Source of the DNA: Dhillonvirus LM40P1
Sequence record: OZ035811.1
DNA: 45,013 nucleotides
Strand: one strand, 5' to 3'
The notes under the pieces are model-generated. The model was not told the origin of the DNA and did no database searches. It was given only the letters and a program-made list of their open reading frames with translations. This document shows positions 3,500 to 40,651 of this stretch, one piece after another. The position numbers were made by a program, and so were the translations under genes. Each line of letters starts with the position of its first letter. Position 1 is the stretch's first letter.

Positions 3500-4586
3500 C
3501 CAACGACTGGCGGATCGCATGATTCGCCGTCACATATTCACCCAGCGCCTGAGCAATGAGCAGGCGCGTAAAGTGCTGGCAATGTGGCAAAAATTCCGTC
3601 CTACGTTACTTGGTAAGCTGACCGAATTACTTGAGGGCAAGAAGTCAATGAGCAATAAGGCGCTTACCACTCTGCTAACCCAAATCGACAAAACGGTTAA
3701 GACCGAACTGCGCGACGAGTTTAAAGTGCTGGCTGAAGGTCTGGCGGAGTTTGCCGATACCGAGGCTGAATATCTGACCGACACATTAACGGCAGCACTG
3801 CAACCTGCGCTTTCAGTCCCTGCCGTTGAGGTGGTTGGTGTAGTGACAGGTGCGCAGATTGCAGCGACGGCTATGAAAAATCCATTCCAGGGCAACACGC
3901 TTATGCAATGGCCTGATTCTCTGTCAGAATGGACCAGAACGCAGATCAGCAATCAGGTGCGCGCCGGATTTATCCAGGGCAAACCTACTATGCAAATTAT
4001 TGCGGACGTCAAGCGCGCGTTGGGCGGTCGTAGCGCGCAGGCCATTTCAAGCGTGGTCAAGTCCGCAGTCAACCACTATGCAGCGACCGCACGCGAATTA
4101 ATGGTAAAAGCAAATGATGATATTCTCGACGGTCGCCAGTGGCTTTCTACACTGGATACTCACACCTCAACGCTCTGTCAGTTACGCGATCGCCTGTTTT
4201 ATCCGGTTGATGTTACCCCCGAAACAAAAGGGAAACGGGACGGGAAAGTGGTGGCTGGATCACAGTATGGCGCTGGTCCGGGCAAGCTACATTATTGTTG
4301 CCGTTCTACCGAGACGTGGAAAGTCAAGGGTATGGAAGATTGGCCCAGTGGTAAGCGTCCGGCACTGAAGGCCGAAGCGGGTAAACTGCTAAGTGAGCAG
4401 GTCAGTGCTAAGACGGACTTCTTCTCCTGGGTACAGCGCCAGCCGCGGCATATCCTTGAGGAATTATACGGAGTGCAGCGCGCGGACCAGATCTTGCGGG
4501 GCGTGAAAGTTCCGACCATGTTTAACGACGCGGGCGAGCTTATGACGATTCAACAACTGAAAAATAAGGGGTTATGGCGTGATTAA
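3477..4586 (+). CDS. minor head / head morphogenesis protein (SPP1 gp7 or Mu F-like position)
   Basis: 369 aa ORF overlapping portal 3' end; conserved position after portal. Confidence 0.45.
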   Translation: MTMPRKINQRLADRMIRRHIFTQRLSNEQARKVLAMWQKFRPTLLGKLTELLEGKKSMSNKALTTLLTQIDKTVKTELRDEFKVLAEGLAEFADTEAEYLTDTLTAALQPALSVPAVEVVGVVTGAQIAATAMKNPFQGNTLMQWPDSLSEWTRTQISNQVRAGFIQGKPTMQIIADVKRALGGRSAQAISSVVKSAVNHYAATARELMVKANDDILDGRQWLSTLDTHTSTLCQLRDRLFYPVDVTPETKGKRDGKVVAGSQYGAGPGKLHYCCRSTETWKVKGMEDWPSGKRPALKAEAGKLLSEQVSAKTDFFSWVQRQPRHILEELYGVQRADQILRGVKVPTMFNDAGELMTIQQLKNKGLWRD

Positions 4587-4887
4587 ATACGCAGCAGTCG
4601 GATTGATTCTCGGCCTTGTAATTGGGTTCTGGCAAGGTGACAACTATCGTGCTGGCGTGGTGGCGGAGGCGGCGCAGGAAGCGCAAGCCAAAGCCCAACG
4701 GCAGCAAACTAAGGTAATCCATGAGTCGGTACAGAAAGAGCAGGCCCGCGAAGTGGAGTTCCGCACAGTTGAGAAAGAGGTGATTAAATATGTCACGCGT
4801 CCTGATCGCGATAATTGTAAGTTTGATGCTGACCGCGTGCGGATCAAGCAACGTGCCGTTGATGCCGCTAACGGAATCAGCAATTAA
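4579..4887 (+). CDS. i-spanin (Rz-like)
   Basis: GTG start with AAGGGG SD; N-terminal TM helix AAVGLILGLVIGFW followed by Ala/Gln/Glu-rich coiled-coil region and C-terminal Cys. Confidence 0.6.
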   Translation: MIKYAAVGLILGLVIGFWQGDNYRAGVVAEAAQEAQAKAQRQQTKVIHESVQKEQAREVEFRTVEKEVIKYVTRPDRDNCKFDADRVRIKQRAVDAANGISN

Positions 4888-5020
4888 GCCGCCGTGTAAG
4901 TTTGAGTCGCCATCGGAAGATCCGGACGAAGATTTAGCGATTGATGTGCGAAATATGAAATGCGGGGCGGAGTTAAGGGCACAAGTGCTGGATTTGCAGA
5001 AATTAATTAAGGGGCCGTAA
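4790..5020 (+). CDS. o-spanin (Rz1-like outer membrane lipoprotein)
   Basis: Starts inside the Rz-like gene in another frame; signal peptide with lipobox LTAC; short Pro-containing mature part; GAGGTG SD. Confidence 0.6.
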   Translation: MSRVLIAIIVSLMLTACGSSNVPLMPLTESAIKPPCKFESPSEDPDEDLAIDVRNMKCGAELRAQVLDLQKLIKGP

Positions 5021-5032
5021 TGGCCCCTTTCT
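5008..5032. terminator. bidirectional rho-independent terminator
   Basis: AGGGGCC...GGCCCCT hairpin followed by T-run, flanked by A-run; sits between convergent genes. Confidence 0.5.
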
Positions 5033-5033
5033 A

Positions 5034-5795
5034 TTAGCGCGGAATACCGCAGATTTCGTTTAGTGTCTTCACGTCAAGCGCTACTGCCGTTGACTTCTTC
5101 TCTTCCTGCGGGATGAACTGTTTCACTTCAGGCCATGCCTTAATAAGTTTGGTGTCTGTAGTGTACTTATTCAGAGTACCCATAACTGACAATTTAAACT
5201 CATCGTATTTAGCACGTAAATCGCGGCGCGCCTTGTCGTTCTTATCCAGACGTTTGCAAAATTCATGCTCTGCCGGGTAATCTGCACGACCGCGAGGCTT
5301 GTAGATCGGCACTTGCTCACCTTCCGCGTTAATTTCCACCAGCGCCGTAAGTAGCGCAGTTTCAAACCCAGGTACGATTTCGCCAATGTCCGGGGCCATC
5401 GAGTTATTGTAGCGGTCTTCCCAGTAGCCTCGGTGACAGCGGCTGCTGTAGTTATCACCGCTCAATGACAGTGTGCGGATGTTACCACCCATGTTGACTT
5501 CGAACGTTGCATCGTACACAGCACCAATGCCGTGGGGCATGTCCTTGTTATGGCTGAAGGTTGCACGGCTGGCGTACACGCTTATGCTAAACATGCCGTT
5601 ATTTGTGTCTTGATAGCTGCGCATCATTTTCTGCAACCCAACGAAGCTGGTAACACCTTTCGGCATCTGATCCAGAGTGATAGCCAGCGCCAGGTCGCGC
5701 GATTCGGTCATTAACTTTTTGGCCTGCTTCGTGATTTCGTGGCCTGCCAGGATGTTAGCCAGGATTTGCTTTTTAATGTCTTTAGTCAGTCTCAT
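5034..5795 (-). CDS. hypothetical protein (antisense insert in the late block)
   Basis: ATG at 5795 (internal to listed ORF) with GAGGAAA SD; 253 aa; own promoter and terminator; no motif recognised. Confidence 0.6.
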   Translation of the reverse strand: MRLTKDIKKQILANILAGHEITKQAKKLMTESRDLALAITLDQMPKGVTSFVGLQKMMRSYQDTNNGMFSISVYASRATFSHNKDMPHGIGAVYDATFEVNMGGNIRTLSLSGDNYSSRCHRGYWEDRYNNSMAPDIGEIVPGFETALLTALVEINAEGEQVPIYKPRGRADYPAEHEFCKRLDKNDKARRDLRAKYDEFKLSVMGTLNKYTTDTKLIKAWPEVKQFIPQEEKKSTAVALDVKTLNEICGIPR

Positions 5796-5825
5796 TGTTG
5801 TTTCCTCGTTTGTTGGTGTGCAACC

Positions 5826-5854
5826 AATATATTGCAACCAATTAGCCAATGCAA
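5826..5854 (-). promoter_or_regulatory. sigma70-like promoter (TTGCAT-17-TATATT) with ATTGGTTGCA repeats
   Basis: -35/-10 hexamers at 17 bp spacing on minus strand, about 30 bp upstream of the 5795 start; same architecture as four other leftward promoters. Confidence 0.5.
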
Positions 5855-5944
5855 GCAAATTTTGTGATTATTTTTATCACTGATAATATTAAGGGCGTGA
5901 AGTCGAGCGGGTGGCCCGCTCTGCCACAATCCCTGGGGGATGTT

Positions 5945-6649
5945 ATGAAACTGACTAAAGCAGAATATGACGCGTTGCCTGAAGGCATGAAAGCATTGTT
6001 TGTTGCCGATGGTGACGGGTACAAGGCGACGTTTATGACCGCCGAAGAAGTACAGGCCGAGATCAAAGGTCTGAAGGATAACAACGCGAAGCTGGTAGGC
6101 GAGAAAAAGGCAGAAGCCGAACGCCGTGCCGAAGCGGAGCGACTCGCTAAAGAGAAAGAGGAAGCCGCAGCGCGCAAGAACGGCGACCTTGAAGCGATCG
6201 ATAAGTCCTGGCAGGACAAGTTTACTAAATACGATGCGGATACGAAGGGCAAAATCGAAGCCTACCGCAAACAGATTCACGATCTTACCATCGGCAGCAC
6301 TGCCAAAGACCTGGCATCAAAGCTGTTCGGTAAGAACGCTGGCATTATGCAACGCCACGTCATGGACCGCCTTGCGCTGGAAGAAGGCGAAGACGGCAGT
6401 CTGAAAGTGCGCGTATTGCAGGACGGCAAACCATCCGCACTGACTCTGGAAGAACTGGAGAAAGAGTTCCGTAGTAACGAAGATTTCGCGTCCGTCCTGG
6501 CGGGTACGCCTGCCGGTGGTGCGCCGAGCAAACCGACCCATGTAATCGACGATCCGAAATCTAAGATTCAGATGGGTCATAGCTTCGGCATCACTGACTT
6601 GACCAAACAGGCCAGCGATATTATCGCCAAACTGGGCGACGACGAGTAA
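5945..6649 (+). CDS. putative capsid scaffolding protein
   Basis: ATG at 5945 with GGGGGA SD; charged coiled-coil-type sequence (KKAEAERRAEAERLAKEKEE); directly upstream of major capsid gene. Confidence 0.5.
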   Translation: MKLTKAEYDALPEGMKALFVADGDGYKATFMTAEEVQAEIKGLKDNNAKLVGEKKAEAERRAEAERLAKEKEEAAARKNGDLEAIDKSWQDKFTKYDADTKGKIEAYRKQIHDLTIGSTAKDLASKLFGKNAGIMQRHVMDRLALEEGEDGSLKVRVLQDGKPSALTLEELEKEFRSNEDFASVLAGTPAGGAPSKPTHVIDDPKSKIQMGHSFGITDLTKQASDIIAKLGDDE

Positions 6650-36206: not shown

Positions 36207-36457
36207 TATGGTGTCTCCCAACGGTCAATAGTTTTTGCTTCAGACCCCACTGCAAAGCGAACATATTCGTGATTCGAGTCCGCCCATAAATAAAAGTCTG
36301 GATTAGCGAAGGTCGTGCGTTTAATTTGTGCCGGTGTTTCCCGCTTCTTACTAATTACGGCAACGCGGGATTGAAAGGGGCCGGTGCGCTCGAATAGCCA
36401 GTAGTACGGGCGCTGGTCGCGCGAGTCCACCGCTTCAATTAATGTGAATCGTGCCAT
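36206..36457 (-). CDS. hypothetical protein
   Basis: ATG at 36457; 83 aa. Confidence 0.4.
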   Translation of the reverse strand: MARFTLIEAVDSRDQRPYYWLFERTGPFQSRVAVISKKRETPAQIKRTTFANPDFYLWADSNHEYVRFAVGSEAKTIDRWETP

Positions 36458-36505: not shown

Positions 36506-37009
36506 TTAGTCTTCCAGTTCGAAATAGGTTTCGACAATTTCTTTCAGTTCGGTGTGGAAGTCTTCAACGTCGTCATCTTCCAGCTTAGCCACAGTCTTGA
36601 TTTCGAACGATTCCAGCAGGTCGTCAAATTCGTCGTTCGCGTCGTCATCGTCGCCGCCTGCAATGATTGCCGCGTATTGTGCAATTTCATCGCGCATTTC
36701 TTTCAGCGGATCGGCGTCTTTCTTAGCCTTCACTTTGCCCTTGCCTTTGGCTGGCTTTTCTTCCGGTTCGTCTTCGTCGTCGTCATCTTCTACGACTTCT
36801 TTTTTCGCCTTGCCCTTAGCCGTGGACTTCTTAGCAGGTTTCTTATCTTCCTGCTCGTCATCTTCGTCTTTGGCTTCTTCTTTCTTAGCCTTAGACGGTT
36901 TCTTATCTTCCTGCTTACCAACGGCAGCGCCCTGGGTTTCGTAATGTTTAGCGATGGTTTCCAGTGCTACTACGCCGCGAGTAATCAGATTCAGGATTTG
37001 CTCAAACAT
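36506..37009 (-). CDS. highly charged low-complexity early protein
   Basis: ATG at 37009 with GGAGAC SD; first gene of leftward early operon; K/E/D-rich with acidic C-terminal half. Confidence 0.5.
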   Translation of the reverse strand: MFEQILNLITRGVVALETIAKHYETQGAAVGKQEDKKPSKAKKEEAKDEDDEQEDKKPAKKSTAKGKAKKEVVEDDDDEDEPEEKPAKGKGKVKAKKDADPLKEMRDEIAQYAAIIAGGDDDDANDEFDDLLESFEIKTVAKLEDDDVEDFHTELKEIVETYFELED

Positions 37010-37056
37010 GGTGTGTCTCCGTTTAGTTAAAAGTGAATGTCGTTTCGACGAGGTGA

Positions 37057-37086
37057 ATAATAGATTGGTTGCAGGATGGGTGTCAA
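37057..37086 (-). promoter_or_regulatory. strong sigma70-like early promoter (TTGACA, 17-18 bp spacer, TATTAT)
   Basis: Perfect -35 on minus strand; spacer contains TGCAACCAAT; A11 tract immediately upstream. Confidence 0.55.
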
Positions 37087-37096
37087 CAACTAATTT

Positions 37097-37107
37097 AAAA
37101 AAAAAAA
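37097..37107. repeat. A11 homopolymer in divergent promoter region
   Basis: Eleven consecutive A on plus strand. Confidence 0.9.
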
Positions 37108-37202
37108 TCCCCGAAGCAAAACGCAACGGGGATAACCATAAGAGACAATGAGACTGGTTTTATTATTACACGCGCGCGCACCCGTTTCAATATACAAAAC
37201 AG

Positions 37203-39833: not shown

Positions 39834-39842
39834 ATTTTGCGC

Positions 39843-39921
39843 GCATTGGTTGCCAATATGGTTAATTTGTGCGCGCATTGGTTGCCAGATTGGGTATTAA
39901 ATCTATATCGCATTGGTTGCC
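39843..39921 (+). repeat. three direct repeats of GCATTGGTTGCC at 32-35 bp spacing
   Basis: Copies at 39843-39854, 39875-39886, 39910-39921, each followed by an A/T-rich hexamer. Confidence 0.75.
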
Positions 39922-39958
39922 GTGTAGTGCTAAATAAGTGAATAGTTATGCAAAATAA

Positions 39959-40131
39959 GTGCATAAAACAAACGGGACAAAAACGGGACAAACGACAAAC
40001 GGGACAAAACGGGACGTCCCGCCGTCCCCCTCAGGAGTGGCGCGGGTTTGAGGCAAACGGGACAAGCGGGACAGACCACAGTCTTTCAGACTAGACGGGG
40101 GGTATTGTCCCCCCTCCGTCTGAGACTGCAT
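39959..40131 (+). repeat. non-coding module copy 2: TGCATAAAAC, CGGGACAA iterons, GGGACGTCCCGCC palindrome, GCGGGTTT box, conserved hairpin
   Basis: Matches 11600-11772 in element order; hairpin stem conserved while loop differs (tattgt versus tcaatgg). Confidence 0.7.
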
Positions 40132-40288
40132 AAAATCTCTGGTTGCATAATCAACGGCAGCATAGTGAAAAATGCGGCGGGGGTAGATCTCGGCAACCAA
40201 TGCGGGTTGAAGAGTGGAGAGTGAAAAATGCAGTTTGGTAATGACAACTGATAGCGATCAGCATTTTCATGCGCGTGATTAATATTGG

Positions 40289-40317
40289 TTGCATTCGTCC
40301 TGCCAGGGTGTTAGATT
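40289..40317 (+). promoter_or_regulatory. sigma70-like promoter (TTGCAT-17-TAGATT) flanked by ATTGGTTGCA motifs
   Basis: ATTGGTTGCATtcgtcctgccagggtgTTAGATTGGTTGCAC about 30 bp upstream of the 40346 gene. Confidence 0.5.
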
Positions 40318-40345
40318 GGTTGCACACCAACATGAGGACTGAACG

Positions 40346-40651
40346 ATGAGAGCATTAATCTGGAATTACACAATGGCTGTGGCGAAGCTGTACGAAGCGA
40401 AGCACACAAACGGCAACGCAGACGACGCGCGCCAGGCTGTCATCCTGGCCCAGCAGGGAATCATGAACGCGTTCGACAATATGTTTGCCAGCCTGGACGA
40501 ACTGGAACCGCTGCGCGTGGCAATCTGCGAATATGCGATGGCATTTGCCCGTGAACGCCTGGCATACCGGTTTGGTATCGGGAAAACGGCAGTGGCTAAC
40601 ATCGCCCGCATTCAGGCCCAGCGTGAGCTGCACGCCATACTCGCGAAATAA
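40346..40651 (+). CDS. hypothetical protein
   Basis: ATG with GAGGA SD; 101 aa. Confidence 0.5.
   Translation: MRALIWNYTMAVAKLYEAKHTNGNADDARQAVILAQQGIMNAFDNMFASLDELEPLRVAICEYAMAFARERLAYRFGIGKTAVANIARIQAQRELHAILAK

Follow-up and report, generated by a model that had tools for sequence, protein, structure and literature searches.

An antisense open reading frame of 253 codons lies within the late genes of a Dhillonvirus genome, between the spanin genes and the scaffold gene, and it raises the question of what a gene with its own apparent expression signals does at this position. A preliminary description of this DNA, made from the sequence and its open reading frames, had regarded it as a gene of unknown function under an early-type promoter, with the signature of a moron or host-takeover gene. 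The gene, nmad5, is in fact already known and annotated, and is an ordinary conserved gene. What we add is an account of residue invariance and fold in its product, the recognition of the C-terminal tail as the best-conserved part, and the finding of an empty operon slot in Dhillonvirus. The explanation that we favor, at somewhat better than even odds, is that nmad5 is an Nmad5-family early gene of the replication module that was moved to the head region, and that its product is likely a non-catalytic adaptor that docks through its tail. The question has a wider bearing in two respects. The family is widespread and carries a name that implies DNA modification, though no activity has ever been shown, and nmad5 of Dhillonvirus is among the few phage genes that are genetically linked to the poorly understood Tmn defence.

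The nmad5 gene and its family

The window (the whole 45,013-nucleotide stretch of DNA that was analyzed) is a Dhillonvirus genome. The 2.2 kb that was tested is 99.8-99.9% identical to phages LM40P1 and Ioannina and about 81-82% identical to more than 100 further Dhillonvirus genomes, with 140 records matching this region. Gene order in the Ioannina record is identical, running from terminase through portal, head-morphogenesis protein, spanins, the antisense gene, scaffold and major capsid protein to the tail genes, beyond which come an early region read leftward and a primase-helicase block read rightward. The 253-residue coding sequence was correctly recognized in the preliminary description as a real antisense gene between the spanin and scaffold genes. 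It occupies positions 5034-5795 on the minus strand, from the ATG at 5795-5793 to the TAA at 5036-5034, as supported by the list of open reading frames, the sequence itself, matches to Pfam PF18757 and phrog_1965, dN/dS values and the Ioannina annotation. On one side it is flanked by i-spanin (4579-4887, plus strand) and the overlapping o-spanin (4790-5020, plus strand), both annotated alike in relatives, and on the other by the scaffold gene, the conserved true start of which is at 5946 and not at the upstream ATG at 5849. G+C content is 0.497 for nmad5, 0.511 for the spanin genes and 0.536 for the window. The spanin genes themselves (4579-5020, plus strand) stand among the head genes, some 37 kb away from the holin/endolysin genes near the other end of the map.

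A Shine-Dalgarno sequence, GAGGA (5807-5803, minus strand), precedes the ATG with a spacing of 7 nt and is invariant in six Dhillonviruses, in agreement with the strong ribosome-binding site noted previously. A TTG-initiated reading of 274 residues from position 5858 was rejected, as it begins upstream of the promoter. The MRLT... N-terminus is conserved across the family, and the ATG at 5795 is thus the real start.

The preliminary description recognized no known motif in the protein, and this does not hold. The product matches the Pfam family PF18757 (Nmad5) at a score of 147.3 bits, where the cut-off is 27 (E = 8e-43), with residues 1-252 aligned to positions 1-206 of the 206-position profile, and it also matches phrog_1965 (E = 3e-50); the record of phage Ioannina already labels the gene Nmad5. 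The name stands for 'nucleotide modification associated domain 5', and the family is reportedly that defined by Iyer et al. in 2013. Its signature is present in full, namely the N-terminal RLTxxIRxxIxxN helix (R2-L3-T4...I7...I11...N14), the central GG beta-hairpin (G103-G104) and the C-terminal AWPE...P...LNxxCG[LI]P (A220-W221-P222-E223 and L245-N246...C249-G250-I251-P252). An exhaustive profile search found 618 representative clusters of the family at 50% identity. Most of these are proteins of about 200 aa with two matching stretches, one in the N-terminal helix and one in the last 90 residues. In the tblastn results, members occur in phages of Escherichia, Pseudomonas, Bordetella and Vibrio.

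With tblastn, about 147 phage records, essentially all of them Dhillonviruses, were found to carry the gene intact, over at least 80% of the protein, and the single apparent truncation, in phage jat, falls at the end of a linear record. Absence or a frameshift in close relatives would have refuted the preliminary reading, and the gene is instead intact there; nmad5 is a core gene of the genus Dhillonvirus, found in essentially every sequenced member. It is under purifying selection, with pairwise dN/dS of 0.06-0.2 over the whole gene; for the C-terminal third, the five main-group relatives give values of 0.00-0.04. The window allele is only about 63% identical to the main group, the examined members of which are 85-95% identical to each other. 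The divergence extends over nmad5 and the scaffold gene together (5034-6649), both proteins being only about 60-63% identical to their main-group counterparts, whereas the portal, head-morphogenesis and major capsid proteins are 88-91% identical. Since the scaffold protein is as diverged as Nmad5 while the portal and capsid proteins remain near 90%, the divergence marks a mosaic two-gene block and is not a property specific to nmad5. An arms race as the cause of the 63% identity was discarded, given the equally diverged scaffold gene next door and the low dN/dS throughout.

Expression signals and the ATTGGTTGCA motif

A sigma-70-type promoter is predicted for nmad5 at 5854-5826 on the minus strand by a regular-expression scan, with a -35 element TTGCAT (5854-5849), a 17-nt spacer and a -10 element TATATT (5831-5826); relatives have TTGCAA, a spacer of 17-18 nt and TATATT at the same place. 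A motif search located an exact copy of ATTGGTTGCA within the spacer (5833-5842, minus strand), where it is invariant in relatives, and a second exact copy (5819-5828, minus strand), which forms part of the palindrome TTGGTTGCACACCAA (5827-5813) and overlaps both the -10 element and the point where transcription likely starts. The promoter matches the consensus at 8 of 12 positions, which is why a general promoter scan did not report it. Six Dhillonviruses share the 150-bp divergent intergenic region at about 95% identity, although their Nmad5 proteins are only 63% identical to that of the window, and this contrast argues for functional control sequences in the region. Two small coding sequences annotated in Ioannina (5744-5875 and 5834-5980) overlap the promoter region and are probably spurious.

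The preliminary description had assigned nmad5 the same promoter type as the early replication genes, and the window as a whole bears this out. At up to one mismatch, ATTGGTTGCA has 21 matches in the window, compared with 3.6 +/- 1.8 in shuffled sequences, and none of 100 shuffles reached 21. A targeted scan of the window for TTGCA[AT]-17 nt-TA[TG]ATT found five promoters of this design, all with ATTGGTTGCA, at 5854-5826, 21975-21947, 26359-26331 and 27820-27792 on the minus strand and at 40289-40317 on the plus strand. The replication-operon promoter (37086-37057, minus strand; TTGACA-18-TATTAT, 11 of 12 consensus matches) carries the motif inverted in its spacer. Judged by promoter similarity, nmad5 is probably expressed early. 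A literature search brought up no apparent report of a Dhillonvirus transcriptome. A strong hairpin, ATCCCCG...CGGGGAT followed by 12 T, lies directly upstream of the replication-operon promoter on the same strand (37057-37135, minus strand), and this terminator-like element would shield the replication operon against leftward transcripts that arrive from upstream.

Copies of ATTGGTTGCA are found in either orientation, their placement with respect to the -35 and -10 elements varies, and three of them form an array away from promoters (39845-39921), which makes a regulator site likelier than a polymerase-recognition element. Such a regulator would be common to the early promoters. An RNA structure at the 5' end of nmad5 was rejected, since the palindrome folds only to -3 kcal/mol (z = -0.3) as an RNA hairpin; given this weakness, it is more likely a DNA site.

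The palindrome TTGGTTGCACACCAA(CA) covers the -10 element and the start site at nmad5 (5813-5827, minus strand) and again at 40316-40330 (plus strand), in the promoter of a rightward operon of small genes that starts at 40346. It is missing from the other three motif promoters, which suggests that the palindrome-bearing promoters may form a sub-class with extra regulation. The second copy lies in a noncoding stretch of about 500 bp (39834-40345) after the primase-helicase gene, in which three direct repeats of tgcgcgcATTGGTTGCC are spaced by 32 and 35 bp. Motif copies in this stretch are at 39845-39854, 39877-39886, 39912-39921, 40284-40293 and 40315-40324 on the plus strand and at 40192-40201 on the minus strand. 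The stretch may serve as a replication origin, or else as a set of operators for whatever factor would bind ATTGGTTGCA.

Downstream of nmad5, the terminator scan and folding identified a G+C-rich hairpin terminator at 5009-5029, between the converging o-spanin and nmad5 genes, with the o-spanin stop codon in its loop. It has 8 pairs (6 of them G-C), folds to -15.9 kcal/mol on the minus strand and -15.7 kcal/mol on the plus strand, begins 4 nt past the nmad5 stop codon and is kept in five relatives. The T-tract rule of the scan is satisfied on the minus strand only. The earlier proposal of a bidirectional terminator is therefore upheld in the direction of nmad5, with a conserved hairpin followed by a T-tract, and is weaker, if plausible, in the direction of o-spanin. 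With a predicted promoter at 5854-5826 and a hairpin at 5029-5009 on the same strand, nmad5 has the makings of an autonomous cassette, in which host RNA polymerase would transcribe the gene early from the sigma-70-type promoter with ATTGGTTGCA and stop at the hairpin.

On its plus strand, at 5860-5945, the conserved intergenic region also holds a promoter-like element, TTGTGA-16-TAATAT, in overlap with the inverted repeat GTGATTATTTTTATCAC; it is followed, just upstream of the scaffold start, by a conserved GCGGGTGGCCCGC hairpin. The segment may be the promoter and leader of the scaffold/capsid operon, an operon that would need its own promoter because of the terminator at 5009-5029.

Genomic setting and a proposed relocation

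Ten varied neighborhoods, one of them an N4-like contig, place Nmad5 beside replication and recombination genes. The neighbors encode a DEAD/ResIII helicase, AAA_24, SSB, PD-(D/E)XK, DUF2800 or DUF3799 nucleases, VRR_NUC or RuvC, primase and PolA. Three metagenomic contigs (L015, L016 and L017) are the most instructive, for their replication operon is orthologous to that of the window, with identities of 60-65% for PolA, 50-55% for the DUF2800 protein, 44-50% for the AAA_25 protein, 43-44% for the Enc34-type SSB and 31-36% for an acidic 168-aa protein, and with an identical set of Pfam domains; L016 stops short of the SSB and PolA genes. All three have Nmad5 within the operon, directly adjoining the homologue of the acidic protein. 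The corresponding slot in the window, between positions 36457 and 36509, is about 50 bp long and contains no Nmad5 (flanks: 36209-36457 and the acidic-protein gene at 36509-37012). A Dhillonvirus-like contig (L018), with a major capsid protein 83% identical to that of the window, has an antisense cassette at the head-region position that nmad5 occupies in the window, composed of a 105-aa open reading frame, Nmad5 and a VG64-family open reading frame.

The acidic protein is highly charged, is encoded at 36509-37012 on the minus strand and has no Pfam match; it is conserved at 27-36% identity, with homologues in L015 (5462-5950), L016 (5452-5952), L017 (6661-7179) and a further contig, L019 (12-551). 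As it adjoins Nmad5 in L015, L016 and L017, it is a candidate functional partner.

These arrangements are most simply read as the relocation of nmad5, by this view an early replication-module gene, to the head region in the Dhillonvirus lineage. It would originally have stood with the early replication/recombination module and would now form an independent antisense cassette between two blocks of head genes. The direction of the move is suggested by synteny in a handful of contigs. A relocated early gene would account for an early promoter amid late genes, and no foreign origin need be assumed. The moron origin proposed in the preliminary description finds no support in a core gene of the genus that belongs to a widespread family (618 clusters), resides in the replication operon elsewhere and is not sporadic in its distribution. 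The host-takeover half of that proposal fares better, in that nmad5 appears as an autonomous early-type cassette that is dispensable, apparently toxic and involved with Tmn.

Position between the head-morphogenesis and scaffold genes, and nothing else, would speak for Nmad5 as a head-assembly or structural protein. We regard such a role as extremely improbable, given the opposite strand and early-type promoter of nmad5, the homologues in replication modules elsewhere and the viability of a deletion mutant (PMC11846954). In proteomics of Dhillonvirus EE09, the genes between scaffold (CDS29/30) and spanin (CDS34) are also not represented among the virion proteins or the 24 lysate proteins detected, a weak negative in which the genes were matched by presumed gene order. 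A standard structural protein would have refuted the preliminary reading, and these findings speak against one.

Protein function and comparison with known systems

An AlphaFold2 (AF2) model built with 18 homologues has a mean pLDDT of 86 and a pTM of 0.81. Residues 1-230 comprise a helical hairpin at the N-terminus, a sheet of four strands, one long helix (178-208) and a pair of short ones, while pLDDT falls below 50 at residues 232-241 and 250-253, on either side of a short helix (242-248). Fold searches of solved structures with this model gave no match to an enzyme fold and no likeness to known inhibitors, a search of BFVD matched only other Nmad5 proteins, and a profile search of PDB sequences gave best E values of 0.5 or worse. 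The PADLOC and NCBIfam libraries held no match for the protein.

Among 42 diverse members, invariance is limited to L217, W221 and N246, with G104, P222, P229, L245 and G250 near-invariant, and it extends to none of the acidic, basic, His, Cys or Ser residues. Within the closer subfamily, N246, H19, D187, R190-R191 and Y197 are conserved, and these may form an unusual enzymatic site. The conserved core, TTxxKLxEAWPE...P...T..AL....LNxxCG[LI]P, ends within a few residues of the stop codon. The C-terminal tail (residues 236-253, TAVALDVKTLNEICGIPR; 5037-5090, minus strand) is the most conserved segment of the family in the alignments, and in all DNA examined the motif LNxx[CI]G[LI]P is confined to Nmad5 proteins, where it always stands at the very C-terminus. 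A strongly conserved terminal peptide that is largely modeled at low confidence is typical of a docking motif, so a binding or adaptor protein is inferred over an enzyme; this adaptor reading draws on negative evidence, namely no catalytic residues and no known fold. The proposed protein would thus have an ordered body of helices and beta-strands (residues 1-230) and a flexible tail (...AWPE...LNxxCG[LI]P) that docks on a conserved partner, either the replication/recombination machinery of the phage or a component of the host.

The genetics of nmad5 have been published for phages SM_S22 and SM_A8, in which escape from Tmn, a defence based on a membrane KAP NTPase, maps to a single Lys-to-Glu change in nmad5 (PMC11846954). 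Reversion of the change restored sensitivity to Tmn, and engineering it conferred escape. Deletion of nmad5 left a viable, plaque-forming phage that did not escape Tmn, and attempts to clone the gene failed, apparently owing to its toxicity (PMC11846954). The escape change is K216E in SM_A8 and K296E in the numbering of SM_S22, and it corresponds to K216 in the window protein (codon 5148-5150, minus strand), as placed by BLASTP alignment with an offset of 80 residues. The SM_S22 gene (PP627283.1; 2036-3040, minus strand) is annotated 80 codons too long, into the scaffold gene, which accounts for the two numberings. K216 is kept in at least 90% of 13 close Nmad5 sequences, and it directly precedes L217 and W221-P222.

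The same study termed nmad5 'a DNA modification enzyme' (PMC11846954), a wording that rests on the family name alone. Taken at its word, Nmad5 would be a base-modification enzyme, or an obligatory subunit of one, that acts on Dhillonvirus DNA, and Tmn would sense the modification. The family name derives from genomic association with modification genes, the M6-like homologue is found in a thymidine-hypermodification cassette with aGPT-Pplase, a kinase, a radical-SAM enzyme, a PLP enzyme and a hydroxymethylase, and the window encodes adenine and cytosine methyltransferases elsewhere. Such a hypermodification cluster surrounds Nmad5 only in the M6-like Pseudomonas phage JM2, however, one of 13 neighborhoods examined (that of C130_2 is mostly unannotated); in the window, no base-modification gene lies near nmad5, the neighbors being spanin and head genes. 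The lack of an invariant acidic, basic, His, Cys or Ser residue, together with the lack of a match to a solved fold, leaves the label unsupported. The BASEL study contrasts the restriction-modification-sensitive Dhillonvirus and Drexlerviridae with the resistant, 7-deazaguanine-modified Queuovirinae (PMC8594841). The nmad5 deletion mutant, moreover, stays sensitive to Tmn (PMC11846954), which is hard to square with a defence that senses an Nmad5-made modification. We consider a modification enzyme improbable on balance, although a minor or unusual chemistry is conceivable. Without conserved catalytic residues or a known fold, and with its usual membership in replication operons, the family directs the focus away from nucleoside chemistry and toward protein partners.

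One such partner could be a host protein, and Nmad5 would then be an effector of host takeover or counter-defence, perhaps one that inhibits a host nuclease or another conserved host protein. Its own predicted early-type promoter and terminator would suit an effector, as would a gene that is dispensable in the laboratory, apparently toxic when cloned, and able to defeat Tmn by a gain-of-function K-to-E change (PMC11846954). The lambdoid homologue resides in the pL accessory region, from N/Nun to cIII-kil, where host-interaction genes cluster, and the invariant tail suggests a partner that is conserved across Escherichia, Pseudomonas, Bordetella and Vibrio hosts. We rate this alternative as unlikely, though less so than a modification enzyme: PADLOC and the fold searches found no kinship with known defence-related proteins or inhibitors, strong purifying selection with dN/dS of at most 0.2 everywhere carries no signature of an arms race, and the placement of the family beside phage replication genes would suit a phage partner just as well. 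The effector alternative overlaps our favored explanation if the partner of the tail is a host protein.

The more specific version of our favored explanation is tentative, if less doubtful than the effector alternative. Nmad5 would be a non-catalytic accessory of replication or recombination that docks through LNxxCG[LI]P, and K216E would rewire this contact and thereby neutralize Tmn. Proposed docking partners are the acidic protein, the nuclease, the primase-helicase or a host protein of DNA metabolism.

Among characterized systems, the closest is nmad5 of SM_S22 and SM_A8 (Yamashita et al. 2025, Commun Biol, PMC11846954), an orthologue in the same position and orientation. The SM_S22 protein is 62.6% identical to that of the window over the full length, the promoter region is alike and the escape lysine is kept as K216, while the window allele is a divergent one, at about 63% identity to the main group. 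Ksap1, the Dhillonvirus trigger of KpAvs2, was considered as an identity for the gene and rejected, being a different gene of 74 aa. It is likewise a small early Dhillonvirus protein in which mutations alter the outcome of a bacterial defence (PMC11564622). Ksap1 binds its sensor directly and its deletion leads to escape (PMC11564622), in contrast to deletion of nmad5, which gives no escape from Tmn.

Further afield, the Nmad5 of M6-like Pseudomonas phages also belongs to PF18757, and its C-terminal 80 residues are about 40% identical to those of the window protein; it lies inside a thymidine hypermodification cassette, whereas the window is without such a cluster. Contigs L015-L017 share the operon gene set of the window, which comprises an HTH protein, the AAA_25 primase-helicase, the acidic protein, the DUF2800 nuclease, the Enc34-type ssDNA-binding protein and PolA. 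Their Nmad5 bears the family signature and is encoded in the operon, but nmad5 of the window is 30 kb away among late genes, with its own promoter. The Dhillonvirus protein is further distinguished by a larger middle domain (approximately residues 60-170), which is poorly aligned or much shorter in the members of about 200 aa. Homologues in lambdoid phages (mEp235 gp37, HK244 and Stx phages) are 36-37% identical in the C-terminal module, over residues 156-252, and are encoded in the pL region between N/Nun and cIII-kil-Erf-SSB-exo. These are likewise early (pL) operon genes, but they encode proteins of about 207 aa and belong to temperate phages.
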